From: a virus
IMG/VR virus record: IMGVR_UViG_3300044984_003188
Direction: 5' to 3' (one strand)
Length of the DNA stretch: 64,000 bases
The notes beneath the pieces are model-generated. The model saw nothing but the letters and a program-made list of their open reading frames with translations, did not search any database and had not been told where the DNA came from. How positions within the stretch are numbered: position 1 is the first letter of the stretch; every line of letters starts with the position of its first letter. Below, piece by piece: positions 9,201-59,740 of this stretch. The position numbers were made by a program, and so were the translations under genes.

Positions 9201-9530
9201 GCAAATTCTTCATACTTTAGCTATTCAAATGCTTCGACAACATACTTTTGGTCTATTGGTGTTGCCACAGCTGCAGGTAATACCACAACACTTCTACCAG
9301 GAAGAAATAAAATTGCCGCTGCATGGACTAGCAATACAATTAAAACTGGTTTAAATGGTGTAATTGTTGGCGATGGCACCGGTACAATTGGATCACGATT
9401 TAATACATATAACCGTATGTACATTGGTGCTCTCTGGGATGGATCAAGTCAGTTTAATGGGCACTTCCGACAAGTAAAATTCTATAATAAAACAAAATCA
9501 AATACAGAAATTATTGCTTTAACTTCTTAA
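6201..9530 (+). CDS. gp7: Baseplate wedge initiator gp7-like protein with a fused C-terminal beta-sandwich module
   Basis: QFPAFYK..GPNFIAFVKAYYEW, LYRSKGT, LQDSKFYQQYSYQI, VHQSG motifs; position between gp6 and gp8. Confidence 0.75.
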   Translation: MYIDKYISPLIANQFPAFYKDQGPNFIAFVKAYYEWAEQSGNFIEQSRSLFDNLDIDSTSAEFISHFKSQYVSLLPDSILGDKRLLMKHILDLYRSKGTPRAYNLLFRILFNEDIEFYIPNDYIFKASDNEWFVPRYIEVTGSPYLKNLIGKRISSVGETNSAVVDNFANVVRNGKEINILFLIAINGEFNTGSRIVCDDLYIGTSGAFIDNYAYSQLSDADKASYSLVYTDTNGPFITGSLSSVIIEDGGTGFSVGDTLSIQDGSGSEGKLKVLRIGNDTSGKVSFAIIDGGSGYTLNANVVVSGGGGAGATFKVGGLIDKELIYINTDLIPTYSNTSLESNTAGMTLGISGNAAAFSATGNLITSSSNVIVADVTSTTLNKIANGTYVSNTTLGINLYAYRSEGSLVWFTSTTDSDLNNANIVAGAIVGNAAQNAFVSLNTVWPKTAVTGNAVIVSSNSTAIIANTVNGYFITTGTVRDVFTTGTTNVNASITSVTRNTDWTFANSVSALDNLDSVIGQVLNFQEVEIGTIAFLSEQNPGSNYVENPTVTVTQPEVYAYFIPDGRGGFKGNNAIVKGYTSFANGVVTGAEVISSGYGYIDGESITAQSDTTNNSISIITVVDSTGKGMGRWRNSKSFISDINYLQDSKFYQQYSYQILAPRMLETYDTFVRDIVHQSGLALYGKYQLKDFQSSESTFEYASNTQTFVTDNPVLNLDFTTQTINSLAIFTRTSNGYYLDANGNMSVASANTPRYEYYSNGSFRGLLIESQRTNSIRNNSMTGANTTTNALPTNWSIFASSGLATRVVGTGVVNGIDYIDLRIVGTSTTTFYVLAFDGSVIATTAAQRWTESFWISLLSGSLTNITSCNINIRWSGGTDADGAFTPTSTFTRISHTGLSPTGTTGVYPALYLNFSSGVYVDLTLRIGMPQMELGTSMSSVIRTTTATATRAGDVLTVNSTSFSSIYNEISRAGAVYIDAVFPPVTSSNFGVFGISNNNAFANSSYFSYSNASTTYFWSIGVATAAGNTTTLLPGRNKIAAAWTSNTIKTGLNGVIVGDGTGTIGSRFNTYNRMYIGALWDGSSQFNGHFRQVKFYNKTKSNTEIIALTS

Positions 9531-9543
9531 AATAGGCATAGTA

Positions 9544-12500
9544 ATGGCGATTCTCACCACCAAGCACTCAGTTGATGTAGCAAATTCATTCATCGACGAT
9601 GTTAAAAACAATAAAAATACTTACTATACTTTCATGGGGCATCCCGCACCATGGAGTACTGAACCTACTGCGCCTGCTGCAAACGATTCGGTAAATCAAG
9701 TAGAGCAATCAATTTATAACGATCTTGTCATTGGTAAGCTCATAGGGAACACAGATGTTTCACATGTAATACCAAGATATGATTGGACAAATAATACTGT
9801 CTATGCAAAATATGATAGAAATGATTCTGCGCTATTTGCTAAGCAGTTCTATGTCATGACAGATAGTTATGAGGTTTATAAAGTTATTGATAATTCCTCA
9901 AATGGATATTCAACCGTAAAGCCTTCTCTTATCTCCACATTAGGAACATTCCAGACCGGTGATGGGTATATTTGGAAGTACATGTATAGCGTTGATCCTA
10001 CCTCAAATACCAAATTTACATCAGCAGATTATATCCCTGTTGCAACAAATACCTCTGTGTCATCCAATGCCGTCGGTGGCACAATTGATACCATTTTTGT
10101 TTCCAATGCAGGTCTAAATTACAACACGTACCAGAATGGATATATTTTCAATTACGTAAGTTCATCTGAGATTCAATTACCAAATACGGCTACAATTTCC
10201 AATACCACAACTTCAACTGTAAATGACTTCTATAGTGGTGCTAGCATCTATTTGAAGTCTGGATATGGTGCTGGTCAAATAAGAACCATTAATAGTTACG
10301 CAGGTGCTACTAGACTTGTAACAGTCAGTGAACCATTTGATACCTATGCTAAAATAGATCTTTCCGACACTCAAGGGACAATTCAAGCTACTCAAATAGC
10401 AACTCAAACTATTGATAGCATAAATCCACTTTATGCCAAGGGATATTTTAGTGTCGGTGATGTTGTTGTGCAGGTGAATAACGGCGTGACAGGCACAGTG
10501 GCATCTTATAATGGCACCACACTAAGAGTAATTAGAAATAACCTTGCGGTCAACTTCTCTACCGCATTTCCAATTCGCAATACAAATAATGATGGAACAT
10601 TAAAGCCAAGCAGAGTCTCCACAACTGCAGGTTCAAATACCGTAACAGCTTTCCAGGCTACTTTTAATGCCAACTCTTCAGTCAATAGCACTGCGGATTC
10701 CATTAGTTTAGGTGCAAATCAATATTTCATTGATGGAGACTATGTCTACTATCAAGTGGCATCGGGTAATACCACAGTATCAGGATTGACTGCCAATACA
10801 TATTATTTCATTGTTGGTTCAAATGCCACTCATATAAAGCTATCCGCAACTGCTGGTGGCACTGCATGTAATATCACTGCTTCTGCCACATCAGAATCTG
10901 GTCATATACTATATGCACCACTTTCAAGCAGCTATGCTATAAATGATTATATCAGAGTTGGAACAAATGCAAATAATAACGTCAGAAGAATAACATCTGT
11001 TGGTACAACAACAGCTGCAGCTGAGAGTGGATTTGATACCACAACAATTGCTGATGTGCACTATTCACTCACAAATATTATTATGCCTGCAAATGTTTCA
11101 CCTACAACTGCAACTGGTACTGTGAGCAATGTAAATCTAAACTCTGTAAGACTCAATGTAAGCGCTGCTTCACTGCCAGGCAAAACTCTTATTATTGGTG
11201 AATCAGTCAAAATGGTTGATTCTTCAAATGTTGCTCAAGGTCCAATCGGTGTTGTTGCATATGCAAACTCTTCACAGGTTATTCTTGGTGGCGTTTCAGG
11301 GACTTGGGCTCTAGGCAATTACATCTTTGGTATGTCTTCTCTACAGAGACATTATATTGATCTTGCCGTATCAAGTCCAAATATAGTAATTTCAAATCCA
11401 GTAGGTATATTTGAAGCAGGGCAGAAAATTGTATTCAGTGGTAATGGTTCTGGTAATGCAGTTGCAACTGCTATCTCTGCTATTCCAAATAGTCTTACTG
11501 AATTTGTGATTAGTCCAAGAGTTACTATTACTGGTGACGGCACTGGCGCTCAAGCCTATGCGGTTGTAAACACCGCTTCTGGTAGTGCAAATACTATTCA
11601 ACGATTTGTAATGGTGAATCCAGGTTCCGCCTATACCAATGCTAGTGTAATTGTCACCGATGGATCTGGATCTGGTGGATCCGGTGCACTTGCAACGCCA
11701 TCCATTGCACCAGTAAAAGGGCATGGCTTTGATGCGGTTGAAGAACTGGGTGGTAAATATGTTGGTATCTATACTAAATTTGACACACTTGAAAATGATT
11801 CATTCTCTTATCCTTCCCATGGATCTTACAGAACAGTTGGCATTCTAGTCAATCCAACATTCCAAGATGTTATTGTGGATTTGGATTCATTTGATCGTGT
11901 TAAATTTACAATTACCGGTGCTTCAGGCTCTTATACTGTAAATGAAGTTGTAATCAATGCAAATGCAAGCATAAGCACTGGTTCTGCCAATCTTTACACA
12001 AATGCAACTGGTGTGGTGGCATATTCTAATAGCACTTATCTTGAATTAAAGAATGTCCGTGGTACTTTCTCCACTACGAGCAATACCGCAAATAGACTCT
12101 ATGGTATTTCATCGGGTGTATTTTCAACTCCAGTGTCATTTGCAAATGCGGCATTTGTTGCTAATTCAACATTTACTCAGGACACAATTACTGGTAATGT
12201 AAAAACCGTAATTACAAATACTAGACTTAGACTAAATGAAGTTGCTGGTAGACTTTCCACAAATGCAACTATTAGCCAAGCATCATCAAATGCATATGCA
12301 AATGTAACGGCGATATATACCTCAAATGGTCAAAAGAATGCTTCTACAAACTATGGTAGATATTTCAATCAGACTCTTAGATTGACTATTAATTCAAACA
12401 CTGGAAGCTTTCAAAGTGGTGAAGTTGTAAGTCAAGGTAATGCAGTTGGTTATCTAATGTCATCCGTTTATGAAAAAGATCTGTTGATCAGTGGAGTTAC

Positions 12501-12906
12501 AGGGTCTTTTGCCAATGGACAACAAGTGGTGGATATTACTTCTGGTGCAAATGGTTATGTAGTCTTTGCAAATTCAACTTATCTAAAGCTTACCGGCGTT
12601 TCTAATAACCTTTCATTCGCTGTGGGGAATTATATAAATAATAACTTAGGGGCTAATGCACAAGTCACCGCTGTTTATCCTGTTCTACTTCTTTCAGGTG
12701 TTTACGGAACAAGTGCATTTACCGCAAGTTCAGTTGATATCGTGGGAAGTAATTCTGCAGCACGTGGGCAAGCAACTGATAGTTCATTGATTACATATCC
12801 ACAACTGGTGAAAAATAGCGGAGAAGTCATGTATCTTGAAAACGTAGCACCTATTACTAAAACACCAGACTCACAAGAACAATTTAAAATTGTTATAAAG
12901 TTCTAG
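9544..12906 (+). CDS. gp8: Baseplate wedge gp8-like protein, greatly expanded
   Basis: IPRYDWT, FYVMTDSYEVYK, GDGYIWKYMY, GHGFDAVEELGG and C-terminal SGEVMYLEN..PI......EQFKIVIKF. Confidence 0.8.
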   Translation: MAILTTKHSVDVANSFIDDVKNNKNTYYTFMGHPAPWSTEPTAPAANDSVNQVEQSIYNDLVIGKLIGNTDVSHVIPRYDWTNNTVYAKYDRNDSALFAKQFYVMTDSYEVYKVIDNSSNGYSTVKPSLISTLGTFQTGDGYIWKYMYSVDPTSNTKFTSADYIPVATNTSVSSNAVGGTIDTIFVSNAGLNYNTYQNGYIFNYVSSSEIQLPNTATISNTTTSTVNDFYSGASIYLKSGYGAGQIRTINSYAGATRLVTVSEPFDTYAKIDLSDTQGTIQATQIATQTIDSINPLYAKGYFSVGDVVVQVNNGVTGTVASYNGTTLRVIRNNLAVNFSTAFPIRNTNNDGTLKPSRVSTTAGSNTVTAFQATFNANSSVNSTADSISLGANQYFIDGDYVYYQVASGNTTVSGLTANTYYFIVGSNATHIKLSATAGGTACNITASATSESGHILYAPLSSSYAINDYIRVGTNANNNVRRITSVGTTTAAAESGFDTTTIADVHYSLTNIIMPANVSPTTATGTVSNVNLNSVRLNVSAASLPGKTLIIGESVKMVDSSNVAQGPIGVVAYANSSQVILGGVSGTWALGNYIFGMSSLQRHYIDLAVSSPNIVISNPVGIFEAGQKIVFSGNGSGNAVATAISAIPNSLTEFVISPRVTITGDGTGAQAYAVVNTASGSANTIQRFVMVNPGSAYTNASVIVTDGSGSGGSGALATPSIAPVKGHGFDAVEELGGKYVGIYTKFDTLENDSFSYPSHGSYRTVGILVNPTFQDVIVDLDSFDRVKFTITGASGSYTVNEVVINANASISTGSANLYTNATGVVAYSNSTYLELKNVRGTFSTTSNTANRLYGISSGVFSTPVSFANAAFVANSTFTQDTITGNVKTVITNTRLRLNEVAGRLSTNATISQASSNAYANVTAIYTSNGQKNASTNYGRYFNQTLRLTINSNTGSFQSGEVVSQGNAVGYLMSSVYEKDLLISGVTGSFANGQQVVDITSGANGYVVFANSTYLKLTGVSNNLSFAVGNYINNNLGANAQVTAVYPVLLLSGVYGTSAFTASSVDIVGSNSAARGQATDSSLITYPQLVKNSGEVMYLENVAPITKTPDSQEQFKIVIKF

Positions 12907-12914
12907 AGGATTAA

Positions 12915-15900
12915 ATGACACTTCAAATAGATCTTTCCCGTAAGCCATATTTCGATGATTTTGACGAAGAAAAGAATTTTTATAGAGTTCTTTATCGTCC
13001 TTCCACTGCTGTTCAAACCAGAGAACTAAATCAAACACAGAGTATATTACAAGACCAGCTAGATAAATTCGGTCGTTCCATTTATAAAGATGGATCGGTT
13101 GTTGAAGGTTGCTCATTTACATTTGATAATAATTACTTCTATGTAAAGATTCAAGATAGATTTGCAAACGGATCTGTCATTGAATCCATTAGTGATTTAA
13201 TCGGATCATATGTGCGTTCTGGTAATAGCAGTAGCTATCTGGAAGCAATCATAGTAAATACAGCTGCAGGTTTGGAAGCACTTACACCAAACTATAATAC
13301 ACTTTATCTTAAGTATTTAAACTCATACGTATATTCAAATGGATCCATTAAATCTGAATATTCAAATAATGATGTGCTTGAGATATTTTCCTCTGCAAAT
13401 GTAGCGATTGCAAATGCAACCGTAGCAAATACCACCAATTCTACTGGTCGTGGTTATGCTATGACAACATCAGAAGGTGTGATCTTCAAGAATGGATTCT
13501 TTGTCAGAGTAGCACCACAAACTCTTGTTATTTCAAAATACAACAATATCCCTAGTGATGTGTCTGTAGGATTTGATCTAGAACAAGATATTATCACAGC
13601 CGAAACAGACCCAAGTCTTGTTGATAATGCTGCTGGTTCACCAAATGAAGATGCACCTGGCGCCCATCGTCTGAAACTTGTTCCTTATCTTTCCATTAGA
13701 GCTGCTTCCGATATTTCAAATACCGCAACATTCTTCTCTCTAGTTGACTTCAAGAGTGGTCTACCTGTAACAATTCGTACAGATCCACAATATTCTGCAC
13801 TAGGTAAGGAATTAGCTAGAAGAACATATGAAACAAATGGTGATTATGTTATCAATCCATTTATTCTTACCGTAGAGAATAAAAGTTCTACCGATGCAAA
13901 TAATACCTCATATCTAAATCTGGTAAGTTCACCAGGTATTGGTTATGTCAAGGGAAATAGAGTAGAATTTCTCAATAAGAATGTCACTGACATTAGAAAG
14001 GGGCTAAACACCTCAACCATTGCAGCACAACAAATTACTGCAAACTTTGGTTACTATATTAACGTTGATGAATATTGTGGTGATTTCAATAATGATCTGA
14101 TTGATCAAGTAGAATTACATTCAATTGCTAAGACCTCAATTTCAAATAGAACATTCCTAAGCACTGGTTATTCTTCTACATCTAAGATTGGTACTGCATC
14201 AGTTCGTGGTTTTGCATATGATGATGGCACTCCCGGAACACCACGTGGTAAGTACAGACTATATCTATTCAATATTTCAATGAACTCAGGCTTCAATTTC
14301 TCTGATGTTCGAAGTGTGATTCGTTATAGTTCTGGTGTCAAAGCCATGGCAGACTTGGTTCTTGATTACAATGGAACCTTGCAAGCCTATACTGCAACCA
14401 TTCAAGATAATGCAAACGAAATCATGATCCATCCTTTTGGTCAAAAGGCCATTAAGTCCGATGGATTTGCTAATGTTCAGTATATCTATAGAAATAGTTC
14501 GAATCAACAGTTCAATACCTCTGGTAGTATGACAATTTCTGTCACTACAGCAGGCACCGGTTCAGAAAGTTTTTACTATCAAGGATCACTATCATCTGTT
14601 GCGGAAGAATCATTTGTTATAATTCCAACACAGACTAGAATTTCATCTGCAAATCTTTCTGGTACTGTTGCAATATCCTCAACAAGTGCCAACGTTGTGG
14701 GCACAAGCACTACATTTGCCACAGACTTCGTTGTCGGTGAATATATCAATGCTAATACTGAAACAAGAAGAATTAATTCTATTGTCAATAATACTCTAAT
14801 TGTTGTTGACTCTGTATTCTCTGCAACTGGTTCTGGTAAGGCTTACTATAAGGAATTCCCAGCTGGCGTTCCAATTAATTTCGGCACTAGTGGTAGAACT
14901 ATCTCCATTTCTGGTAATTCTGCCACTCTTACACTAAATCACAACATTAATGCCACAATGCAATGCACCGTGTATTATGATGTAAAGCGCTCAGAAACCA
15001 AACCAATCGGCAAGGTTATTCAAAGAGATACTCATATTGCTATCTATACAGGTAATAATGCCGGTGGTACTACTGGTCCATGGTGCTTGGGTATCCCAGA
15101 CGTTTATAAATTAAAACATGTTTATGTTGGCACAACAAAAGCAAATACAAATCCAGATATGCTTATTGACTTTGATCTAGACAATGGTCAAAAAGATTCA
15201 TATTATGGTCTAGGCTATATTTCATCCAAGAAACCATTGGCAAATAATCAGTGGCTACTTGTTGTTGTTGACAACTTTACACAAGATATCACTCAGGGTA
15301 AAGGTTTCTTCACAGCAAATTCATACCCAATTGATGATGTCAATACTGCAAATACCCAAACCATCACTACTGCAACAATTCCAGTTTACAATTCTGTTGT
15401 GACCGGTAAAACATATGATCTCAGAGATTCACTAGATTTCAGACCATATGCTACAAATACTGCCGTTGCAAATGCCATCTCAAATACTGCTGCAACTGTA
15501 AATCCTGCCACCGCAGCCGCAACTATATTTGCGGTTGATCCTGTGAATGGTTCTTATCTACCTTCACCAGATTTACCTTATCAGTCAACAATTCAATACT
15601 ATCTACCTAGAAAAGACAGAGTATCTCTCACCACCGGTGGTGATATTTTAGTGACCGAAGGTATTTCTGCTCAAAGACCTATAGCACCTCTTGAAGTGCC
15701 AGATACCATGACTATTGGTATTATAGATGTTCCTGCTTATCCTACATTGACTCCTGCTGCCGCAGCATCAGCTGGTCGTTATGATTATGCCGTGCAGTCG
15801 TCTATTCAACAAATCAAACGCTATACAATGAGTGATATTGGCAAGCTTGCCAATAGAATTGATCGTCTAGAATACTATACTTCACTCTCACTTGTAGAGC

Positions 15901-17279
15901 AAGGCGCTAGTGCACTTCTTGTAAGATCAAGCACAACTGGTCTAAATCGTTTCAAGAACGGTATTCTAGTTGATCCATTCAAAGATCATACTATCGGCAA
16001 TACCAATAATCCATTATATCGTATTGCAATTGATTCTACCAGAGGTGAAGCAAGACCGCTATTCTCTCAAGGTTTTGTGAATCTGTATTATGATGATTCG
16101 TTGTCAACAAATACCACAAAGACTGGTGATATTATTACACTTGAGTACACTTCAGTTGTAAATCAAAGCCAGAATTTTGCTTCAAAACCAGTAAATCCAG
16201 CACTCGGCAATCAATATCACTTCAGTGGCACTATGACTTTGGATCCTCCTGGTGCTATCAGCGTGGATATTACCAAGGCACCAGATGTTATTGGTGATTT
16301 GGATCTTTCTTCCAATTGGGTAAATATGCAGAGATATATCTCTGCTGTTTATGGATCACAATGGAGCAATTGGACTAATACTCTAACCCCTGCTCAACAA
16401 TCTGCTCTTACCTCTTCATCATTTTCTAATCAAGTGGTGACCACAAATGTTCAGCAGTCTCAGAATTATGGGCGTGATATACAAGTTCAGAATACCCAGA
16501 GCTTGGTCACAAATGGCAATTATGTCACAAATGTAAGCACACTTTCGTACATTCAAGCAATCCCAGTGTTCTTCAAAGCTAGTGGTATGAAGCCACGCAC
16601 AACGCTCTATGCATATTTCAACAATATTCCGGTCACACAATATTGCTATCCAATGACCGTATATACCGGAACCGTTACAACCTCTGGTGGTTATAAAAAG
16701 ACCGATGATGGGCGCTTTGTATTTACTGATAAGAACTCTGTAAATTATGCTTATAGTAGTCTATTTGGAACAACATATCCTGCAAATCAAGCACTAAAAG
16801 CGGATGATTATGGCAATGTTTATGGTATATTCTTTATTCCGGATGCTACATTCAGAACTGGTGAACTTGAATTTGTTTTGACTGATGTTTCGGATCTTTC
16901 AAATATCATCAATTCCTCAACCGTTTCTAGAGATACATTCTTTGCAACAAACTTATTTGTACAGACAACCACAAATAGTCAAATTAGAAACCCAACGATA
17001 AATACATCAGAACAAACAAATCAAAACTCACTAAATCAAAATACCAATACACCACCATCAAACGATCCGGTTTCCGCTACTGCACCGCCACAATATATCA
17101 CATCAGAACAATACAATGGTGCTGATGGTGGTTGGGTCACAATAGAAACACCAGTTTTGAATGTGAGTGACACTTCACAACAATATACCGGTAGTGGTGG
17201 TGGATATGCAACATACTCAGTATATGCAAATTATAGTGGTAATCAAGATTTAAGTTCCTATCAGGGTGGTGCTAATTAA
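12915..17279 (+). CDS. Large virion structural protein, DUF4815/VrlC-like (N-terminal part)
   Basis: PYFDDFDEEKNFYRVLYRP..AVQTRELNQTQSILQ; APGAHRLK; LARRTYETNGDY; RLEYYTSLSL; RFKNGILVDPF. Confidence 0.8.
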   Translation: MTLQIDLSRKPYFDDFDEEKNFYRVLYRPSTAVQTRELNQTQSILQDQLDKFGRSIYKDGSVVEGCSFTFDNNYFYVKIQDRFANGSVIESISDLIGSYVRSGNSSSYLEAIIVNTAAGLEALTPNYNTLYLKYLNSYVYSNGSIKSEYSNNDVLEIFSSANVAIANATVANTTNSTGRGYAMTTSEGVIFKNGFFVRVAPQTLVISKYNNIPSDVSVGFDLEQDIITAETDPSLVDNAAGSPNEDAPGAHRLKLVPYLSIRAASDISNTATFFSLVDFKSGLPVTIRTDPQYSALGKELARRTYETNGDYVINPFILTVENKSSTDANNTSYLNLVSSPGIGYVKGNRVEFLNKNVTDIRKGLNTSTIAAQQITANFGYYINVDEYCGDFNNDLIDQVELHSIAKTSISNRTFLSTGYSSTSKIGTASVRGFAYDDGTPGTPRGKYRLYLFNISMNSGFNFSDVRSVIRYSSGVKAMADLVLDYNGTLQAYTATIQDNANEIMIHPFGQKAIKSDGFANVQYIYRNSSNQQFNTSGSMTISVTTAGTGSESFYYQGSLSSVAEESFVIIPTQTRISSANLSGTVAISSTSANVVGTSTTFATDFVVGEYINANTETRRINSIVNNTLIVVDSVFSATGSGKAYYKEFPAGVPINFGTSGRTISISGNSATLTLNHNINATMQCTVYYDVKRSETKPIGKVIQRDTHIAIYTGNNAGGTTGPWCLGIPDVYKLKHVYVGTTKANTNPDMLIDFDLDNGQKDSYYGLGYISSKKPLANNQWLLVVVDNFTQDITQGKGFFTANSYPIDDVNTANTQTITTATIPVYNSVVTGKTYDLRDSLDFRPYATNTAVANAISNTAATVNPATAAATIFAVDPVNGSYLPSPDLPYQSTIQYYLPRKDRVSLTTGGDILVTEGISAQRPIAPLEVPDTMTIGIIDVPAYPTLTPAAAASAGRYDYAVQSSIQQIKRYTMSDIGKLANRIDRLEYYTSLSLVEQGASALLVRSSTTGLNRFKNGILVDPFKDHTIGNTNNPLYRIAIDSTRGEARPLFSQGFVNLYYDDSLSTNTTKTGDIITLEYTSVVNQSQNFASKPVNPALGNQYHFSGTMTLDPPGAISVDITKAPDVIGDLDLSSNWVNMQRYISAVYGSQWSNWTNTLTPAQQSALTSSSFSNQVVTTNVQQSQNYGRDIQVQNTQSLVTNGNYVTNVSTLSYIQAIPVFFKASGMKPRTTLYAYFNNIPVTQYCYPMTVYTGTVTTSGGYKKTDDGRFVFTDKNSVNYAYSSLFGTTYPANQALKADDYGNVYGIFFIPDATFRTGELEFVLTDVSDLSNIINSSTVSRDTFFATNLFVQTTTNSQIRNPTINTSEQTNQNSLNQNTNTPPSNDPVSATAPPQYITSEQYNGADGGWVTIETPVLNVSDTSQQYTGSGGGYATYSVYANYSGNQDLSSYQGGAN

Positions 17280-17307
17280 TGAAAAACAATAAGGGTCTAT
17301 AAACTAA

Positions 17308-20094
17308 ATGAATCCTATAGCTCAAACTTTTATAGTCTCCGAGCCGGAAAATGGCGTTGATGCAGTATTTGTCACAGCTGTTGATCTATTCTTCAGAAAA
17401 AAGTCATCAAATTATGGCATAGAATTGCAGATCAGAGAAACACAGAATGGGGTGCCTACCAAAAGAGTCATCCCATATGCCTCAAAGGTATTGCAACCAA
17501 GTCAGATCAATATTTCTGGAACTGCTGCAACCGCTACCAAGTTTACATTTGATACTCCTGTAGTACTAAGAACAAATGTGCAATATGCAATTACAGTTTC
17601 ACCAGTAGGTGGCGATCCAAATTATGATATATGGATCGCTGAACTTGGTGCAAATGACGTTGCCAATCCAACTGTTCCAATTTACAAGAATAATCAGCTT
17701 GGTTCTTTGTTTGTTTCTTCAAATGATTTAAACTTTATCCAAAGACCTACGGAAAATATAAAGTATACCTTATACACAGCTCAATTTAGCCAGACTAGTG
17801 GTAATGCTGTATTCCGAAATGCAAATAATGATTTCTTCCGTGTTCGTGATATCATTGGAACATTTAGACCTGGTGAACAAATCATGGTCTCAAATGGATG
17901 GCTAGAACTTGCTGCATTGAATCTATCCGGTGCAAACGTATTTACAATCGGTGAAACCCTTTATCAAACTTCAAGTGGTTCTTCACCAAACACAGCCACC
18001 GGTAAAGTTTATTTTGCTAATACAACTGTTGTAAAAGTTTCAAATCTAGATGGTGCATTTGTCTCCACTGGTAATACCACTGTGGTCGGTGCCACTTCTA
18101 GCAAAACTTCTGTAATTACAGCAGCATACCAAAATGTCATCACGACATCTGCAACAAATGTGATTACAGTTCCGGATCCAAGTTACTCTGAGTTTGCAAA
18201 TGGCAACTACATTGCCGTATTTACCGCTTCAACTGCAAATGCTCAAATTTTACAAATCACAGCAAACAGCACCGTATCTAGAACTTTGACATTATCTGCT
18301 AATGTAAACTTTACAGATTCAGCAGCCAGAATCACTGCGGTTTATGCAAATGCTAATTTGCATGGATATCTGGCTTCTCAGACTCGTTCTTATCCTGAAT
18401 CTACATTTGTAATCGGTGGTGTAAACTCAAATACGACTGTAAACTTTGCAAATACATCTGGTAAACAACTTATCGGTAGAGATTCTGGTGCTTCCGCATA
18501 TATTATTTCTCTAGTGGATATGTATTTTGATTCCGTAACTTCACAATTCACGGAAGCAAAACCAAGATTCACTGATACAAATTGGGCTTTCCAAGGTATT
18601 TCAAATACTAAAAGTGTGGATGCATCATATAACACAGTGCGCCAAGATGTGCCATATGAATTTAATGATCAACAAAGAATGCTTATGTCCAGAAGTAATG
18701 AGCTTAAGGCATCACTTGCCGTTGGTGGCACCAGTGGTGCAAGTTCATTTAAGATTAGATCTGATTTGACTACAGCAAACAATAAAAGCTCACCTTATAT
18801 TGATACAATTAGAAATCAAGCTGTATTTACACACAACATGATTTTCCCTGAAGTATTCCTAAATGGTACAGCGCTTAATATTGCCAATCTGACTGGTTAT
18901 TTTGCATTAGGTGATACCGTTTGGCAGGCAAATGCCACAACAAATACCACTGGCACAGTTGTTATGTCTAATAGCACATTCATTGCGGTAAGTAATTTGG
19001 CAAGTAGCAATACAATGCACATTGCAGGATTTAATGTTGGTTCAAATATAACCTCTACAAATATCACAGCAAATGGTGTTGCAAATGTCTCAGCAATTAG
19101 AGTTTATAATGAGGCTTCATTTCCTGCAGCGGATCAATCCCGCTATATTTCCAAGAATGTAGTACTTGCAGATAAGCAAGACTCTGAAGATCTTATTTGC
19201 TATCTCACTGCATATAGACCACAAGAGACAAATCTATTAGTTTACGGGCAATTTAGTTCTGCGGATGATGCGGAATCACTTGGATCCAAGCATTGGTCTA
19301 GACTTCAAGAGAATACTATTTCAGTTGGTTTGTACAGCAGTCTAGTAAATAGAGATGATTATGTTGAATTAGCATATGATTTACCTACTTCTATTCAACT
19401 TCAAAATAACAATGTCTCCACAAATACCACTTCTGCAACTGTAAATTTTGTCGGCACAGCAGATAATTCCGGAATCAAACCAGGTAATTTTGTCTACATT
19501 AGAGATTTGAGTTATGGTGTAACAGGCGTAAGTATTGCAGCCGCAGGTTCTGGATATGCAACTGGTGATCAAGTAAGAATAGATGGTGGTGTTCCCGGCA
19601 TTCTAAACGCCAATGCAGTTCTAAGTGTTGTTGCAAATCCAACTGGCAATGTGGTTGGATTGTCTGTAATCTCCAAGGGTAGTTATCCAAATAACCAGGT
19701 GCTATCTGCAAATGCCACAGCAAATGTAACTGGTTCTGGAACAGGACTTACCCTAGGTGTGAGTGCACTTCAATTTGAACAATCAACAAAATTCAATGTG
19801 CGTAGAGTTATTGCAACTCCAAATACATCTTCAATTGTGCTAAATTCAAATAATTCTTTCATAACTGGTAATTCAACTGTTGGCGCTGGAGCCATTGGTT
19901 TAATTCCAGATTTAGAAACTCAATATGGTGCATTTAAATATGCAAATAATGAAGGTATTATTAGATATACAACCTCAACTGATCAGGTGTTTGATAGCTA
20001 CAAAACCTTTGCTGTAAAGATTGTTCTTGTTTCTAATAATTCTTACATCGTACCAAGACTCAATGATATGAGAGCAATAGCACTGCAGGTATAA
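17308..20094 (+). CDS. Virion structural protein, C-terminal part of the VrlC-like family
   Basis: Starts PIAQTF.V....VFVTAVDLFF..K and ends FAVKIVL......VPRLNDMRAIALQ, as at the C-terminus of these proteins. Confidence 0.7.
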   Translation: MNPIAQTFIVSEPENGVDAVFVTAVDLFFRKKSSNYGIELQIRETQNGVPTKRVIPYASKVLQPSQINISGTAATATKFTFDTPVVLRTNVQYAITVSPVGGDPNYDIWIAELGANDVANPTVPIYKNNQLGSLFVSSNDLNFIQRPTENIKYTLYTAQFSQTSGNAVFRNANNDFFRVRDIIGTFRPGEQIMVSNGWLELAALNLSGANVFTIGETLYQTSSGSSPNTATGKVYFANTTVVKVSNLDGAFVSTGNTTVVGATSSKTSVITAAYQNVITTSATNVITVPDPSYSEFANGNYIAVFTASTANAQILQITANSTVSRTLTLSANVNFTDSAARITAVYANANLHGYLASQTRSYPESTFVIGGVNSNTTVNFANTSGKQLIGRDSGASAYIISLVDMYFDSVTSQFTEAKPRFTDTNWAFQGISNTKSVDASYNTVRQDVPYEFNDQQRMLMSRSNELKASLAVGGTSGASSFKIRSDLTTANNKSSPYIDTIRNQAVFTHNMIFPEVFLNGTALNIANLTGYFALGDTVWQANATTNTTGTVVMSNSTFIAVSNLASSNTMHIAGFNVGSNITSTNITANGVANVSAIRVYNEASFPAADQSRYISKNVVLADKQDSEDLICYLTAYRPQETNLLVYGQFSSADDAESLGSKHWSRLQENTISVGLYSSLVNRDDYVELAYDLPTSIQLQNNNVSTNTTSATVNFVGTADNSGIKPGNFVYIRDLSYGVTGVSIAAAGSGYATGDQVRIDGGVPGILNANAVLSVVANPTGNVVGLSVISKGSYPNNQVLSANATANVTGSGTGLTLGVSALQFEQSTKFNVRRVIATPNTSSIVLNSNNSFITGNSTVGAGAIGLIPDLETQYGAFKYANNEGIIRYTTSTDQVFDSYKTFAVKIVLVSNNSYIVPRLNDMRAIALQV

Positions 20095-52044: not shown

Positions 52045-53756
52045 TAGTATTTAAGAAAATCCGTTTTAAAAACTTCCTTTCAACAGGAAATCAATTTACA
52101 GAAATCGACTTATATAATTCTGGTAATACTCTTATTGTCGGAACAAATGGTGCTGGGAAATCAACACTTCTTGATGCTTTAACTTTTGGTTTATTTGGTA
52201 AAAGTTTTAGAAATATCAATAAACCACAACTTATGAATACTATAACCAAACGTGATCTTTTGGTAGAGATTGAATTTTCAATTGGTAAAAATAACTTCCT
52301 CATAAGAAGAGGAATGAAGCCCAATGTATTTGAAGTATTCTGTAATGATTCACTTCTCAATCAATCTGCTGAGATGCGAGACTATCAAGAAATTCTTGAA
52401 AAGCAGATTTTGAAATCAAACTATAAAACATTTTGTCAGGTTGATATTCTTGGATCGGCTTCATTTGTTCCATTTATGCAATTACCTGCCGCTCAACGAA
52501 GAGCTGTAATTGAAGATTTACTTGATCTACAAGTATTCAGTAATATGAACGTTCTATTGAAAGAACAGATTCAGCAAAACAATCAAGATATTCTAGAAAA
52601 TTCTTATAAAAAGAAAATTATTGATGAAAAGATGAAGTTCCTCAAAGATCATCTTGAAGAACTTACAAAAAAGAGTGCAGCTTTTATTGGGGAAAAGAAA
52701 AATACTATCCAAACCCTTAAGGAAAATATTGTCGAGAAACAAAAAGATATTAGATTAAATAATGCTAATATTAATCAATTAGTTTCCTCAATTAAACATA
52801 TTGACTATTCTACTGTAAAAACAAAACTCTCAAAATTTGAAACTTTGAAAATTGAATTAAATTCTAAAATGGATTTACTTAATAGAGAAATCCATTTTTT
52901 TGAGAATCATGAACATTGTCCAACATGCAATCAAAATATTGACTCTAAGCTTAGTTGTGATAAAATTGAGAATGGGCAAAAAAGAATCAAAGAACTTGAT
53001 GCTGGTTTGATAAAACTTAATACAATGATTTCAGAAATCAGAGATTCAATTATGTTTTATGATTCTACAAATGCAATTATTATTGCGCATAAAAATACTA
53101 TTAATTCAATAGAATTGAGTATCAAGCAAGTTGAATGGAAAATTTCCTCAATTGAGGAAGAAATCAAAGCAGCAAGTGAAAATATTTCCGATTCATCTGA
53201 TTTAAAAATTGTTGATTTGGAAAAAGAACTTGCTGATGTTGCTAAAGAACATAATGATCTTCATGAACATAGATCAGTACTATCTCATGCTGCATCCCTA
53301 CTAAAAGATGGTGGTATTAAAACCAAAATCATAAATCAGTATATTCCAATTATTAATAAGCTAATTAATAAGTATCTATCTTCTATGGATTTCTTTGTTG
53401 ATTTTCAATTGAATGGACAGTTTGAGGAAACAATTAAATCCAGACATCGTGATGAATTTAGTTATGCTTCATTTTCAGAGGGTGAAAAACAACGAATTGA
53501 TCTTGCTCTACTCTTTACATGGAGATCAATAGCCAAACTTAGAAATTCAATGAGTACAAATCTATTAATTTTGGATGAGGTATTTGATTCAAGTCTGGAT
53601 AACAATTCAACCGAAATGCTTATGCAGATTTTAAATACCATAGGCTCAGAGTGTTCTCTCTTTGTGATTTCGCATAAAGATCATTTAATTGAGAGATTTC
53701 CAAATATTATTAGATTTACAAAAAATAAAAACTTTAGCAGAATTGAGGGACAATAA
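52041..53756 (+). CDS. gp46: Recombination ATPase subunit (Rad50/SbcC-like)
   Basis: GTNGAGKST; CPTCNQ zinc hook; FSEGEKQRID; LDEVFDSSLD. Confidence 0.96.
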   Translation: MIVFKKIRFKNFLSTGNQFTEIDLYNSGNTLIVGTNGAGKSTLLDALTFGLFGKSFRNINKPQLMNTITKRDLLVEIEFSIGKNNFLIRRGMKPNVFEVFCNDSLLNQSAEMRDYQEILEKQILKSNYKTFCQVDILGSASFVPFMQLPAAQRRAVIEDLLDLQVFSNMNVLLKEQIQQNNQDILENSYKKKIIDEKMKFLKDHLEELTKKSAAFIGEKKNTIQTLKENIVEKQKDIRLNNANINQLVSSIKHIDYSTVKTKLSKFETLKIELNSKMDLLNREIHFFENHEHCPTCNQNIDSKLSCDKIENGQKRIKELDAGLIKLNTMISEIRDSIMFYDSTNAIIIAHKNTINSIELSIKQVEWKISSIEEEIKAASENISDSSDLKIVDLEKELADVAKEHNDLHEHRSVLSHAASLLKDGGIKTKIINQYIPIINKLINKYLSSMDFFVDFQLNGQFEETIKSRHRDEFSYASFSEGEKQRIDLALLFTWRSIAKLRNSMSTNLLILDEVFDSSLDNNSTEMLMQILNTIGSECSLFVISHKDHLIERFPNIIRFTKNKNFSRIEGQ

Positions 53757-53757
53757 T

Positions 53758-54879
53758 ATGTTTTTATCTATGCTTTATAAACGAACTGCAACAGGTGCAG
53801 TTCAAACATGGGTTATTGAGGTTGAAGGTGATTCATGGAGAACAATTTCTGGTCAACACGGTGGCGCTATGGTCACCTCAACTTGGCACAAATGTTTTGC
53901 TAAAAATACTGGTAAAAAGAATGCTACCACAAATGAAGAACAAGCTGTAATTGAAGCAAAAGCTAAACATAAAAAGCGACTTGAACTTGACTATTTTGAA
54001 AGCATGGATGATATTGATAATGATATCTATTTTAAACCCATGCTTGCAGCAAAATATAAAGATCGTGTAAAAAAACTTGATTTTAAAAAGCAGGTATGGA
54101 CACAACCCAAACTAGATGGGATGCGTTGTATTGTCACAATGTCTGGAATGTATTCACGAGCAGGTGAACAAGTTGTATCTTCACCGCATATTCATGAATA
54201 TATGCTTCAGAATGGATTTTGGGATCAAGATGAATCTTTGGTCTATGATGGCGAGCTATATAATCATGAGTTCCATGAAAATTTCAATGAGCTCATGAGT
54301 ATTGCTAGACAAACCAAACCAACGGCAGAAGATCTAAGCAAGTCAAAAAATCTATTACAGTACCATATCTATGATATCACTGGTGAAAAAGAAGAAACAT
54401 TTAATGAACGATTTGTTTCCAAACCACACCAAAATAGCACATGCGGAACAATTCAATTTGTTCAAACCGATGAAGTCAATAGTCTTGAACAAATTGATGC
54501 TATGTATGAAAAATATCTAGAATTAAATTATGAAGGACAAATGGTCCGAGTCAATGATTTATATCATAATAAGCGTTGCAATACACTCTTAAAAAGAAAA
54601 GAATTCATTGATGAAGAATATAAGATTCTTGATATTGTTGAAGGTAATGGTAATCGTGCTGGTATGGCAGGTAGAATTACTCTTCAGAAGGAAGATAAGC
54701 GTACCTTTGGTGCTGGGATTAAAGGATCACATGAATATTGTAAAAAACTATTACTTGAAAAAGATAAGTATCTCAACAATAATTCAGAGGCAACCATTCG
54801 GTATTTTAAATTAACACCAGATGGAATTCCTCGCTTTCCTGTTGCTGTTTATCTTTATGAAAATGGTAGAAAGGAATAA
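53758..54879 (+). CDS. gp30: ATP-dependent DNA ligase (ATG at 53758 after GAGGGA)
   Basis: PMLA; QPKLDGMRC; YDGELY; YEGQMVR; LLKRK; PRFP. Confidence 0.9.
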   Translation: MFLSMLYKRTATGAVQTWVIEVEGDSWRTISGQHGGAMVTSTWHKCFAKNTGKKNATTNEEQAVIEAKAKHKKRLELDYFESMDDIDNDIYFKPMLAAKYKDRVKKLDFKKQVWTQPKLDGMRCIVTMSGMYSRAGEQVVSSPHIHEYMLQNGFWDQDESLVYDGELYNHEFHENFNELMSIARQTKPTAEDLSKSKNLLQYHIYDITGEKEETFNERFVSKPHQNSTCGTIQFVQTDEVNSLEQIDAMYEKYLELNYEGQMVRVNDLYHNKRCNTLLKRKEFIDEEYKILDIVEGNGNRAGMAGRITLQKEDKRTFGAGIKGSHEYCKKLLLEKDKYLNNNSEATIRYFKLTPDGIPRFPVAVYLYENGRKE

Positions 54880-55229
54880 TGAAAGTTATTATTGCTGGAA
54901 GTCGTAAAATAAAAGATCCTGAAATAGTTTTAAATGCTATAGAAAATTCTGGCTATAATATAACTGAAGTTGTTTCTGGTAAAGCCAAAGGTGTTGATAC
55001 CATAGGTGAGGCCTATGCTAATATGATGGAAATTCCAATAAAAGAATTTCCTGCAGAATGGACTAAATATGGTAAAACTATTGCTGGACCCATCAGAAAT
55101 AAAGAAATGTCCTTATATGCTGATGCTGCAATTATAATTTGGAATGGTACCTCAACTGGTACTCATAATATGATCCAAAATATGAAAAAAGTTAAGAAAC
55201 CATATTTTTTAGTGAAAGTTAAACAATGA
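54879..55229 (+). CDS. SLOG / YspA-like (DUF2493) protein
   Basis: KVIIAGSR; VVSGKAKGVD; AGPIRNKEM; W.G.S.GT..M. Confidence 0.8.
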   Translation: MKVIIAGSRKIKDPEIVLNAIENSGYNITEVVSGKAKGVDTIGEAYANMMEIPIKEFPAEWTKYGKTIAGPIRNKEMSLYADAAIIIWNGTSTGTHNMIQNMKKVKKPYFLVKVKQ

Positions 55230-55702
55230 ACTTAATTGAATATACAGACCCAATTTTAAAAGAAATTAGCAAACAATTTGATTTTCAAAATCCACCATTT
55301 GACGCTCTTGAGTTCTCTCAAGAGCTAGTTAAGACAATGTATGATAATAATGGGATTTGTCTTGCCGCTATTCAAGTTGGAATCCCTCTTAGAATATTTG
55401 CTATGAGAGGAACACCAGAGAATTTTGTTTGCTTTAATCCAAGAATTGTGCAACCCTCAGAACAAATGATTCGACTTGAAGAAAAGTCATTGACATACCC
55501 TGGCTTATGTGTTAAAGTAAATCGACCACAACATTGCAGAGTAAGATTTGCTACTCCGAATGGTGAGGTTAGAACAGAAACATTTACAGGGATAACAGCT
55601 CGTGTATTTCAACAATCCATGGACTTTCTTGATGGGCAGCTATTTTACTCAGCTGCTAATTTTATTCATCGTCAGCAAGCTCTAAGGAAATGGAAGCGGT
55701 AA
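55226..55702 (+). CDS. def: Peptide deformylase-fold protein, catalytically degenerate
   Basis: GICLAAIQVG, FNPRI, EEKSLTYPG and ARVFQQSMDFLDG align with PDF motifs I-III, but the metal ligands are absent. Confidence 0.8.
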   Translation: MNLIEYTDPILKEISKQFDFQNPPFDALEFSQELVKTMYDNNGICLAAIQVGIPLRIFAMRGTPENFVCFNPRIVQPSEQMIRLEEKSLTYPGLCVKVNRPQHCRVRFATPNGEVRTETFTGITARVFQQSMDFLDGQLFYSAANFIHRQQALRKWKR

Positions 55703-55703
55703 A

Positions 55704-56243
55704 GTGAATATTTTCTATCTATCAACTGATGCAGCCGAAGCCGCACAATGGATGGTTGATAAACATGTTGTCAAAATGATTCTAGAATCAGCACAACTAT
55801 TATCTACAGCACACCGTATTTTAGATGGACTTGAAGTTTCCGGTAAATCCAAGACCGGTCGTAATGTAAAGCGTTGGGTACTAAATGATGGGCGTGAATC
55901 TATCATTTATACTGCTACTCATGTAAATCATCCTAGTGCTGTTTGGTGCCGGCAATCAATTGAAAATTATAATTGGCTTGTAGAGCATTTTCACGCTTTA
56001 GGTCAAGAATATACATATCGCTATGGTAAGACACACAAATGTTTTCAGGGTGATTTAGCATATATGCTATCTTCACCCCCAAACAATCTTAAGAACTATG
56101 AATGGACTAAAATGCCATCGGCTATGGCTGATGAGTATAAAATCAGCGATGATCCCTTGACAAACTACAGAAATTATTATAAAGTAGCAAAATCACGGAT
56201 GCACTCGTGGAAAAATCGTCAACCCCCAGAATGGATTATATAA
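55704..56243 (+). CDS. Pyrimidine-dimer DNA glycosylase / DenV-like family protein
   Basis: MNIFYL...DKHVVKMILESAQLLSTAH; HVNHPSAVW; EYTYRYGKTH; YRNYY. Confidence 0.75.
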   Translation: MNIFYLSTDAAEAAQWMVDKHVVKMILESAQLLSTAHRILDGLEVSGKSKTGRNVKRWVLNDGRESIIYTATHVNHPSAVWCRQSIENYNWLVEHFHALGQEYTYRYGKTHKCFQGDLAYMLSSPPNNLKNYEWTKMPSAMADEYKISDDPLTNYRNYYKVAKSRMHSWKNRQPPEWII

Positions 56244-56455: not shown

Positions 56456-56824
56456 ATGACAAAATATTCACTCACATTTCAAGAAATTAATGCACTTACC
56501 AGTATTCAAAATAAGCTTTATGGTCAATCCAAGGAAATGGGTTGGCATGATAAACCACGTGAAATTGGAACTAGAATTGCACTTTGTCATTCTGAGCTTT
56601 CTGAAGCACTAGAAGGTGCTCGTAAAAATCTAATGGATGATCATTTGCCTTCTCGCAAGATGCTTGAAGTTGAACTAGCAGATTGTATTATTCGTATCTT
56701 TGATCTTGCCGGTAGTGAAGGTCTAGACGTTGCTGGTGCTATTGCTGAAAAGCATGACTATAATGCCAATCGTGCTGATCACAAGCGTGAAAATCGTGCA
56801 GCAGCTGGTGGTAAAGCTTTCTAA
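56456..56824 (+). CDS. MazG-like nucleotide pyrophosphohydrolase
   Basis: ALCHSELSEALEG...EVELADCIIRIFD...K..YN..R. Confidence 0.85.
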   Translation: MTKYSLTFQEINALTSIQNKLYGQSKEMGWHDKPREIGTRIALCHSELSEALEGARKNLMDDHLPSRKMLEVELADCIIRIFDLAGSEGLDVAGAIAEKHDYNANRADHKRENRAAAGGKAF

Positions 56825-57583: not shown

Positions 57584-57847
57584 ATGCTGTTAGCTGAAAC
57601 CGTTGAAGATCTTCAAAATGAATGGCGCAATCCATACCTTCAATGGTATGCAGCAGGTATGCCAGCATTTAATACGTACGATATTTCACCATATAAACAG
57701 ATTAAACTTAAGTTTAAAACTATGGAAGATCGTCAAGCATTTGCCGACTATCTAGAATATCCATTGACAGAAAAAACAAATGTGATATGGTATCCAGATA
57801 AGGGTAGAGAGAAGAATATTATGAACAGGATTATTGAAGATGAATGA
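57584..57847 (+). CDS. Hypothetical protein associated with the glycosyltransferase gene
   Basis: W..AGMPAF....PYKQIKLKFKTMEDR.AF...L...LTEKT..IWYP. Confidence 0.6.
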   Translation: MLLAETVEDLQNEWRNPYLQWYAAGMPAFNTYDISPYKQIKLKFKTMEDRQAFADYLEYPLTEKTNVIWYPDKGREKNIMNRIIEDE

Positions 57848-58784
57848 TATCTATCATACTAGATTTCCAATTTATATTATTTCCAAAGGTCGGTGGGAGT
57901 CTAGGTATACTTCCAAGGCTCTAGAAAGCATGGGTGTTCCGTATTTCATTGCGGTTGAACCTCAAGAGTATGAGCAGTATGCTGCAGTCATTGATCCCAA
58001 AAAAGTTTTAACACTACCTTTTTCCAATCATGGTAAAGGTTCTGGACCAGCCCGTAATTGGTGCTGGGAACATTCGCAGGCTAATGGATTTAAACGCCAT
58101 TGGCTAATGGATGATAATATTTTTGAGTTCTGGCGCTTTCATAATAACAAACGCTATAGAATTGGTCGTGGTTCTGCTTGTTTTAGATCAGTAGAAGATT
58201 TTGTTGATCGCTTTGAAAATGTTGCTCTAGCAGGACTTCAATACAAGTTCTTTTGTGTTGATGATTATCCTTATCCTCCTTATATTCTAAATACACGAAT
58301 TATGTCATGCTTTCTTATTGATAACGATTGCCCACATAAGTGGCGTGGTCGCTATAATGAGGACGTTGATCTTTCTATTCGAGTACTTAAGGAAGGTCTA
58401 TGCACAATGCTTTTCTACTCTTTTCTATGTGGTAAAGCAAGAACCGGCACAATTAAAGGTGGTAACACTTCAGAAATTTACAACAATTATCAAGAAGATG
58501 CATCACTAAAAAAGTCTCAAATGCTTCTAGAGATGCACCCTGATGTGGTGACTCTACAGGAAAGATATGGTAGAATCCATCATCAAGTTGACCTTGAAGC
58601 AATCATTAATAAAAATGGTCAACCTGCTAGACTAAATCCACTTATTCTCAAAAAAGATGTAAAAATTGTGAATAAAAATGATAACTACGGTATGAAACTA
58701 ATTCGTGAGTTTGGCACTGATCAAGCTTATGAGGATACCGAATATTCAATTGAAAAATATCCAAGCGGTAGGAAAAACTTTTAA
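57840..58784 (+). CDS. GT-A glycosyltransferase, TET-associated (TAGT)/GREB1-like family
   Basis: PIYIISKGR; VEPQEY..Y; GPARNWCWEHS; HWLMDDNI; WRGRYNEDVDLSIRVLK.G; KGGN. Confidence 0.75.
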   Translation: MNDIYHTRFPIYIISKGRWESRYTSKALESMGVPYFIAVEPQEYEQYAAVIDPKKVLTLPFSNHGKGSGPARNWCWEHSQANGFKRHWLMDDNIFEFWRFHNNKRYRIGRGSACFRSVEDFVDRFENVALAGLQYKFFCVDDYPYPPYILNTRIMSCFLIDNDCPHKWRGRYNEDVDLSIRVLKEGLCTMLFYSFLCGKARTGTIKGGNTSEIYNNYQEDASLKKSQMLLEMHPDVVTLQERYGRIHHQVDLEAIINKNGQPARLNPLILKKDVKIVNKNDNYGMKLIREFGTDQAYEDTEYSIEKYPSGRKNF

Positions 58785-59740
58785 TGGCTCATATTTTTAT
58801 TACAGGTATTGCTGGTTTTATTGGCTTTCATCTAGCACAAAAGCTACATGAAGCTGGTCATGAAGTTTCTGGGATGGATAATTTTAATGATTACTATGAT
58901 GTAACTCTTAAAAATACACGTGCTGATATTTTAGATAAAAATTATATTTTTGTTTATCGACGTAATTTACTAGATAAAAATGATACTTTCTACACTTTAA
59001 AGAATGAAAACCCAGATATGGTCATTCATCTAGCTGCATATGCTGGTGTCCGACATTCATATGATCATGCTATGGATTATATCCAAAATAATATTGTTGC
59101 TACACAGAATCTTATTGAAGTGCTTGAAGAACTTAATATCAATAAAGCAATCTATGCTTCTACTTCTTGTGTCATGGCAGGCAATCAACTACCATGGAAA
59201 GAAGATGAACCTACTGGGCATCAACTAAACCCATATGGATATACCAAGCGCACAAATGAATGTCAGTTTAAAACTTCCAAGATCAAGCAAAATATTGGTC
59301 TAAGGTTCTTTACTGTTTATGGTCCATATGGTCGACCTGATATGGCGCTATTTCAGTTTGCCGAAGCTGCTGTAAAAGGTAAAACCATCGATGTTTATAA
59401 CTACGGTGATATGAAACGTGATTTTACCTATGTAGATGATATTGTGAATGGAATTGAAATCTTGATGAATCATATTTTAAATACTGAAGAATCACAAGCA
59501 GAAATCTACAACATTGGTCGTGGTCAACAAGTTCAGCTTATGGACTTTATTTCAGAGATCGAAAAGAATATGGGTCATGAAATCAAGAAAAATCTAGTAC
59601 CACGCCATCCTGCTGATACACTAGAAACTTGGTCAGATACCACAAAGCTCCAAGCACTTGGATGGAAACCAAAAGTTTCTATTTCAGAAGGTGTTGCTAA
59701 ATTTTGTGAGTGGTATAAGCAATATTATAAGGTGAACTAA
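58784..59740 (+). CDS. NAD-dependent nucleotide-sugar epimerase, UDP-glucuronate 4-epimerase-like
   Basis: TGIAGFIG; HLAAYAGVRHS; YGYTK; LRFFTVYGPYGRPDMA; RDFTYVDDIV. Confidence 0.85.
   Translation: MAHIFITGIAGFIGFHLAQKLHEAGHEVSGMDNFNDYYDVTLKNTRADILDKNYIFVYRRNLLDKNDTFYTLKNENPDMVIHLAAYAGVRHSYDHAMDYIQNNIVATQNLIEVLEELNINKAIYASTSCVMAGNQLPWKEDEPTGHQLNPYGYTKRTNECQFKTSKIKQNIGLRFFTVYGPYGRPDMALFQFAEAAVKGKTIDVYNYGDMKRDFTYVDDIVNGIEILMNHILNTEESQAEIYNIGRGQQVQLMDFISEIEKNMGHEIKKNLVPRHPADTLETWSDTTKLQALGWKPKVSISEGVAKFCEWYKQYYKVN

Follow-up and report, generated by a model that had tools for sequence, protein, structure and literature searches.

Why should a phage keep an intact peptide deformylase (PDF) gene in which all the metal ligands and the catalytic glutamate have been replaced? 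The question is raised by IMG/VR virus record IMGVR_UViG_3300044984_003188, a stretch of 64,000 nucleotides that was analysed at its full length (hereafter the window) and that encodes such a PDF homologue (hereafter the query) at positions 55226 to 55702. Few genes are as abundant in aquatic viromes as PDF, which is treated there as an active auxiliary enzyme. In the window, the stop codon of the upstream gene overlaps the ATG of the PDF gene (ATGA) and the next gene begins 2 nt past its stop, placing it within a tightly packed block of co-oriented genes. The features on which the argument turns are the following.

55226..55702, + strand: coding sequence of the catalytically dead peptide deformylase homologue, 158 aa, intact, with ATG start and TAA stop
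55352..55375, + strand: motif I, residues 43-50, GICLAAIQ, the second Gly being Cys45
55481..55495, + strand: motif II, residues 86-90, EKSLT, the metal-ligand Cys being Ser88
55535..55537, + strand: codon of Cys104, a Cys newly fixed in the dead clade described below
55610..55627, + strand: motif III, residues 129-134, QQSMDF, in which HExxH reads QSMDF (Gln130, Ser131, Phe134)
55661..55699, + strand: predicted basic C-terminal helix, residues 146-158, FIHRQQALRKWKR

The established mechanism of PDFs relies on a Cys-His-His metal site and a Glu acting as general base (PMC5591237). A residue-by-residue HMMER alignment to Arabidopsis PDF1B (3m6o) places GICLAAIQ opposite GIGLSAPQ, EKSLT opposite EGCLS and QQSMDF opposite QHEYDH. 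Thereby, the first metal His is replaced by Gln130, the catalytic Glu by Ser131, the second metal His by Phe134 and the metal Cys by Ser88. Measured against the patterns of active PDFs, motif I (GxGxAAxQ) has Cys45 for its second Gly and retains Gln50, motif II (EGCxS with the metal Cys) reads EKSLT, and motif III has lost the HExxH signature with its two metal His and catalytic Glu; Gln50 is hence the sole survivor of the catalytic set. Because the metal ligands and the catalytic Glu are all replaced, the query cannot deformylate by the known mechanism. The initial annotation, made from the letters of the sequence, had already read the metal Cys, both His and the catalytic Glu as gone, in a full-length frame without frameshift that ends in a basic helix (HRQQALRKWKR). 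The alignment to PDF1B bears out the replacements, the 158-residue frame runs intact from ATG to TAA, and residues 146-157 form a helix in the AlphaFold2 model.

Despite these replacements, family membership is clear. The query matches Pfam PF01327 (Pep_deformylase) with 116 bits against a cut-off of 22.8 (E 1.5e-33, profile positions 3-151 of 156) as well as phrog_2890 (E 2e-32). An AlphaFold2 model built from a 136-sequence alignment has a pLDDT of 96.2, and Foldseek relates it to type 1B PDFs from Arabidopsis, Plasmodium falciparum, Pseudomonas and E. coli with TM scores of 0.86-0.91, those for the Arabidopsis, P. falciparum and E. coli enzymes being 0.88-0.91; the comparison with E. coli PDF spans about 160 alignment columns, nearly all of the 158-residue model. 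The query is thus predicted to have the PDF alpha/beta fold, and the C-terminal alpha-helix that follows motif III in type 1B enzymes is present in the model (DSSP helix 146-157). An assignment to type 3 PDFs is not indicated, the best solved relatives being of type 1B and the nearest sequence relatives being active phage orthologues at the same gene position.

Indeed, dead and active loci alike carry the gene downstream of gp46 (sbcC-like) and have a 179-aa phrog_624 protein immediately after it. This common gp46 ... PDF-phrog_624 neighbourhood makes the dead forms positional orthologues of the active PDFs and not extra paralogues. The search for a second PF01327 match came up empty for the window and for five dead-clade contigs (51-108 kb, at most 63% complete). 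Chance or an assembly artefact is ruled out, as at least 20 contigs, stemming from several samples, encode the exact query protein and the DNA of the phage was detected in 17 metagenome runs of lake water dated 2020-2025, which makes this a real and widespread freshwater phage gene. We regard the query, with high confidence, as a PDF pseudoenzyme, the orthologue of an active T4-like phage deformylase that is devoid of metal site and catalytic Glu.

This protein is far from being alone. A word-index search returned 379 relatives, the best 120 of which share 63-95% identity with the query, and 215 loci were found in IMG/VR, 80 of them being kept with their DNA. The commonest dead motif set reads xICLxAxQ / ExSLT / QHCMDF, with QQSMDF as motif III in the query's own subclade, and smaller dead groups carry GVGIAANQ / ESCLT / QQHLDY or GIGISANQ / ESSLT / QQMxxN (GIGISANQ / ESSLT / QQMVDN in P0119). 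Canonical forms (GIGLAANQ / EGCLT / QHELDH) share 61-68% identity with the query, and single-hit intermediates have exchanged only Cys for Ser (L062, L080), only His for Phe (L049) or only His for Tyr (L042). In trees built without the three motif blocks, the query falls inside a clade of 107 sequences, every one of which lacks the catalytic set (FastTree support 96), and the 39 members of this dead clade that were sampled for IQ-TREE again form a single clade (SH-aLRT 95). Outside it, dead forms are interspersed with active ones, with at least 8-12 state changes by parsimony; a single origin of all dead forms was rejected, the constrained tree being 147 lnL units worse (AU p 0.0009).

Far beyond the query clade, among P0121-P0270 and L093-L096, phage PDFs seem to have lost catalysis pervasively. 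Among the 150 nearest representatives of clusters at 50% identity, gathered by an exhaustive search (P0121-P0270), 113 have the full catalytic set and 36 others deviate. A few of the latter are fragments or have all four catalytic residues, which leaves about 30, a fifth of the 150, whose catalytic residues have been exchanged in very diverse ways: the motif II Cys by Ser, Asp, Thr or Asn and the last His by Phe, Tyr, Ile or Val. Many of these dead representatives still end in a helix of the ANxxHRxxAxKKWKK type. All three representatives that were looked up have a T4-like context: P0250 and P0159 follow closely on gp46, and P0238 has RNase H and PhoH genes in its vicinity. Active motifs are found in each of the cultured relatives DLP6, Cr30 and Melnitz. 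Regarding the C-terminus, many active orthologues (L032, L036, L037, L044-L048, L054-L058 and others) are 178-181 aa long and have a tail of the type ...YEYLLHR or ...EHLLR instead of ...RKWKR; long tails also occur in a few dead forms (P0034, P0056, P0062, P0118).

Is the dead gene under selection? From codon alignments of the loci, the median dN/dS comes to 0.118 for the dead clade as against 0.125 for the active group, these values being pairwise Nei-Gojobori (NG86) estimates only, with many pairs near synonymous saturation (median dS about 1.5); for the query and its closest locus (L001), dN is 0.033 and dS 0.271. Purifying selection on the dead gene is as strong as on the active enzyme, and none of 81 loci has a frameshift or a stop. 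By region, dN/dS in the dead clade amounts to 0.12 over the former motifs, 0.107 over the C-terminal 19 residues and 0.106 over the rest, against 0.044, 0.187 and 0.146, respectively, in the active group. Relaxation is therefore confined to the former active site, which is about 3-fold less constrained and now evolves like average scaffold; in the dead clade, constraint on the C-terminal helix and on the body is no weaker than in the active enzyme. The initial annotation had proposed a repurposed pseudoenzyme and not decay, expecting a dead motif set conserved at dN/dS below 1, as opposed to relatives with active motifs and neutral evolution of this copy. Its proposal is upheld by the conservation of the dead set in a 107-member clade at about 0.12, the same value as in active orthologues; relatives with active motifs do exist, at the 61-68% identity given above, and neutral evolution of this copy is contradicted by dN/dS.

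Per-site comparison adds detail to this picture. The switches fixed in the dead clade are Gly45 to Cys, Cys88 to Ser and His134 to Phe, set in a scaffold common to both groups: position 45 is Cys in 85% of the dead clade and Gly in 100% of active relatives, position 88 is Ser in 99% and position 134 Phe in 95% of the dead clade. Ser88 is encoded by TCN in 23 loci and by AGC in 9, and one clade member (P0076) still has Cys at this position; as both types of Ser codon lie one step from TGC, Ser was either reached repeatedly or held across a switch of codon family. Intermediates bearing Tyr at position 134 fit a path from His through Tyr to Phe. Positions 43, 47, 49, 87, 130 and 131 are relaxed in the dead clade, position 87, a Gly in active forms, having become Lys, Ile, Thr or Val. 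Gln50 is invariant in the 107 rows of the dead clade and in active relatives, and His148, Arg149, Ala152, Lys155 and Trp156 are nearly invariant in dead forms and active relatives. Cys104, found in 94% of the dead clade, corresponds to Val or Ile in active forms, and Arg83, Arg116, Glu118, Thr119, Pro146 and Gln151 are further newly constrained positions.

We favour the explanation that the query is a folded, expressed-type PDF pseudoenzyme which purifying selection keeps for a non-catalytic job, most likely docking at the ribosome; to this explanation as a whole we give a probability of roughly 0.45. Undiminished purifying selection after loss of the metal site implies that the PDF scaffold has a second, non-catalytic function that can be maintained alone, and what selection maintains is, we infer, an interaction. 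The C-terminal helix is the most stubbornly conserved exposed-type element of the family, in dead and active forms, and in E. coli PDF this helix anchors the enzyme at the ribosome near uL22, at the tunnel exit (10.1101/2022.04.20.488877; PMC12690207). As a tentative proposal, somewhat short of even odds, the job would be docking at the ribosomal exit site through the conserved basic helix, in the manner of type 1B PDFs. Once docked, the dead protein might occupy the site of the host PDF, compete with other exit-site factors or otherwise modulate the co-translational handling of nascent chains, leaving the formyl group on; alternatively, it may merely retain a scaffolding role already present in the active phage enzyme. 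The changes from Cys to Ser, His to Tyr or Phe and Gly to Cys look as if the metal site had been remodelled directionally into a packed core free of metal, whereby the scaffold would be stable without iron. Among the roles envisaged by the initial annotation, the conserved helix favours that of an exit-tunnel competitor, the invariant Gln50 keeps alive that of an fMet-peptide binder, and an anti-defence decoy receives no support among the present results.

It is also conceivable, though we consider it unlikely, that T4-like phages repeatedly and independently turned their PDF into a metal-free dead ligand of the ribosome exit because the dead form is advantageous. It would be a dominant-negative blocker of co-translational deformylation by the host or of other exit-site factors and, if this holds, would represent a means of host takeover that targets nascent chains and has so far gone unrecognised.

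Several points weigh against a pseudoenzyme docked at the ribosome. The docking itself is something we infer from helix conservation and homology. The query helix is 8-10 residues shorter than that of E. coli PDF. The copy count comes from partial genomes and a second, active PDF may be present elsewhere in the phage. Pure docking does not account for the invariant Gln50 or for the newly fixed Cys45 and Cys104. Moreover, a PDF C-terminal helix can serve another partner, as it does in B. subtilis DefA with the tyrosine kinase PtkA (PMC11194573).

This last point introduces a rival explanation, namely a protein-protein regulator whose helix and scaffold would bind and control a host or phage protein. 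According to that study, inhibition of PtkA by DefA requires the C-terminal alpha-helix, and H2O2-inactivated and apo DefA were among the forms assayed on PtkA (PMC11194573). The newly constrained Arg83, Arg116, Glu118, Thr119, Gln151 and Pro146, all outside the active site, would suit a DefA-like regulator. However, the helix residues are equally conserved in active orthologues, so that their partner predates inactivation, and what this helix is known to bind is the ribosome; no other candidate emerged, and the differences in gene content between dead and active loci follow phylogeny. We hold a regulator to be rather improbable, somewhat behind the possibility of a formyl-peptide reader or trap. 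In the latter, itself unlikely, the cleft would bind N-formyl-Met termini without cleaving them, thereby shielding formylated nascent chains or marking them, whether or not the ribosome is involved. Gln50 contacts the formyl group or the metal-bound water in PDFs, and its invariance in 107 of 107 dead-clade rows amid the relaxed neighbouring positions 43, 47 and 49, the strict retention of Ser88, isosteric with Cys, and a dN/dS of 0.12 over the former motif region, which is not neutral, all speak for such a reader. On the other hand, two glycines that line the substrate cleft with their backbone have given way to residues whose side chains probably intrude into it (Cys, Tyr or Asn for Gly45; Ile, Thr, Lys or Val for Gly87), and Gln50 is also gone in more distant dead lineages (P0157, P0159, P0160).

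A poor candidate, less probable than either of these, is a rewired enzyme, in which new Cys residues (45, 104 and often 131) with His130 or His103 would form another metal or thiol centre catalysing deformylation or another hydrolysis. Cys45 (85%) and Cys104 (94%) have been gained and conserved, most dead-clade members have His130-Cys131, and Cys95 appears in the query's subclade where Cys131 is lost. Yet there is no invariant pair of nucleophile and base, position 45 being Cys, Tyr, Asn, Ser or Thr, position 130 His, Gln or Asn and position 131 Cys, Ser, Asn, Thr or Ala, with Gln130 and Ser131 in the query itself; the motifs are under 3-fold less constraint than those of active forms, and independent dead lineages have unrelated residues. 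The recurrent loss of catalytic residues across the family could finally point to a decaying relic, a gene heading for loss once the phage no longer needed a deformylase. This is very improbable: dN/dS, at 0.12, equals that of active orthologues, the 81 loci are free of frameshifts and stops, the scaffold is conserved in 107 distinct sequences and Ser88 is kept across codon families. Neutral decay is effectively refuted by the pairwise selection estimates.

How does a selected pseudo-deformylase compare with known systems? The query shares about 30% identity with the PDF of Synechococcus phage S-SSM7, a T4-like cyanophage. This enzyme (PDB 3uwa/3uwb) and that of Vibrio phage Vp16 (PDB 5mtc) are active phage PDFs of the same Pfam family and fold and have all three motifs, whereas the query has no catalytic set and keeps a basic C-terminal helix. 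Viral PDFs have been described as having short C-termini without a ribosome-binding helix (PMC5591237; PMC3660681). The uncultured active orthologues (L031-L079), which are 61-68% identical to the query and share its post-gp46 neighbourhood, are closer; many have the same C-terminal helix as the query, others a longer and different tail. Unlike the query, these orthologues and those of Stenotrophomonas phage DLP6, Caulobacter phage Cr30 and Melnitz read GxGxAAxQ / EGCLx / QHExDH. Type 3 or accessory PDF paralogues from S. aureus, S. pneumoniae, Archaea and trypanosomatids also have motif substitutions and are reported to be weakly active or inactive (PMC12690207; PMC5591237); their function is not known, and they form a separate phylogenetic type that stands beside an active PDF. 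By contrast, the query is type 1B-like by sequence and fold, is phage-borne, is the only copy found on its contig and replaces the active orthologue in position. B. subtilis DefA resembles our reading of the query in having a non-catalytic function dependent on its C-terminal helix (PMC11194573), but it is a still-active deformylase of another type in a Gram-positive cell, and no kinase partner is indicated for the query.

A 2017 survey found perfect motif conservation in phage PDFs, which were presumed active (PMC5591237), and full-text literature searches for inactive, pseudoenzyme or deformylase-like phage proteins returned no description of dead phage PDFs. What is new here is an orthologous, recurrent and strongly selected pseudo-deformylase lineage in T4-like phages. 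A large dead clade from lake phages and many smaller independent lineages contradict the view of all phage PDFs as active, and PF01327 matches in viromes should hence not be tallied as deformylase capacity. Moreover, natural pairs of dead and active orthologues at about 65% identity provide ready controls for work on toxicity, on N-terminomics and on binding to the ribosome.

The window derives from a T4-like myovirus and carries genes for a large terminase, tail sheath, portal, gp23-type capsid, gp46/gp47 nuclease and clamp loader, its GC content being 36.7%. Its capsid protein is 71% identical to that of Stenotrophomonas phage DLP6 and 66% identical to those of Methylophilales phage Melnitz and the Sinorhizobium phiM12 group; among cultured phages DLP6 comes closest, its PDF being 40% identical to the query. 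A megablast search with the 10 kb around the PDF gene gave no nucleotide-level match among 50,697 phage records; the phage is without a close cultured relative. Two metatranscriptome libraries from different studies contain contigs that cover positions 55510-55699 only, at about 93% identity. Five of the seven listed differences fall at third codon positions, and the other two change codon 146 from Phe to Pro, the dead-clade consensus. These contigs derive from a relative and not from the query phage, DNA carry-over is possible, and they represent a weak hint of expression.

Around the PDF gene, the interval that follows gp46 holds an ATP-dependent DNA ligase (53689-54879, + strand) and a 116-aa protein of the YspA/SLOG family (PF10686, phrog_289; 54879-55229, + strand). 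Among the 80 related loci, the SLOG gene is confined to L002, L003 and L066 and the ligase to L001-L003, and this region looks like a variable insertion slot. Active loci (L031-L080) usually have one to three small open reading frames (ORFs) of 50-70 aa located 150-750 nt upstream of the PDF gene; none of the dead-clade loci (L001-L030) has such ORFs between gp46 and PDF, and in these loci gp46 mostly stands right before the PDF gene. The comparison of gene content between dead and active loci provided no functional lead, as the differences track phylogeny. Downstream, the 179-aa phrog_624 product (55704-56243, + strand), labelled "DNA binding protein", has a sub-threshold match to Pyr_excise (T4 endonuclease V-like), and its gene stands directly after the PDF gene in nearly all loci, dead and active. 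A MazG-like pyrophosphatase is encoded at 56456-56824. Further on, a gene resembling TAGT or beta-glucosyl-HMC-alpha-glucosyltransferase (phrog_842, PF20691) stands ahead of a nucleotide-sugar epimerase gene (phrog_540), the two spanning 57834-59740 (+ strand), which suggests glycosylated, hypermodified DNA in the query phage. Finally, four consecutive very large ORFs of 1109, 1120, 1454 and 928 aa (6201-20094, + strand) lie upstream of the head and tail genes and presumably encode tail-fibre or baseplate proteins.
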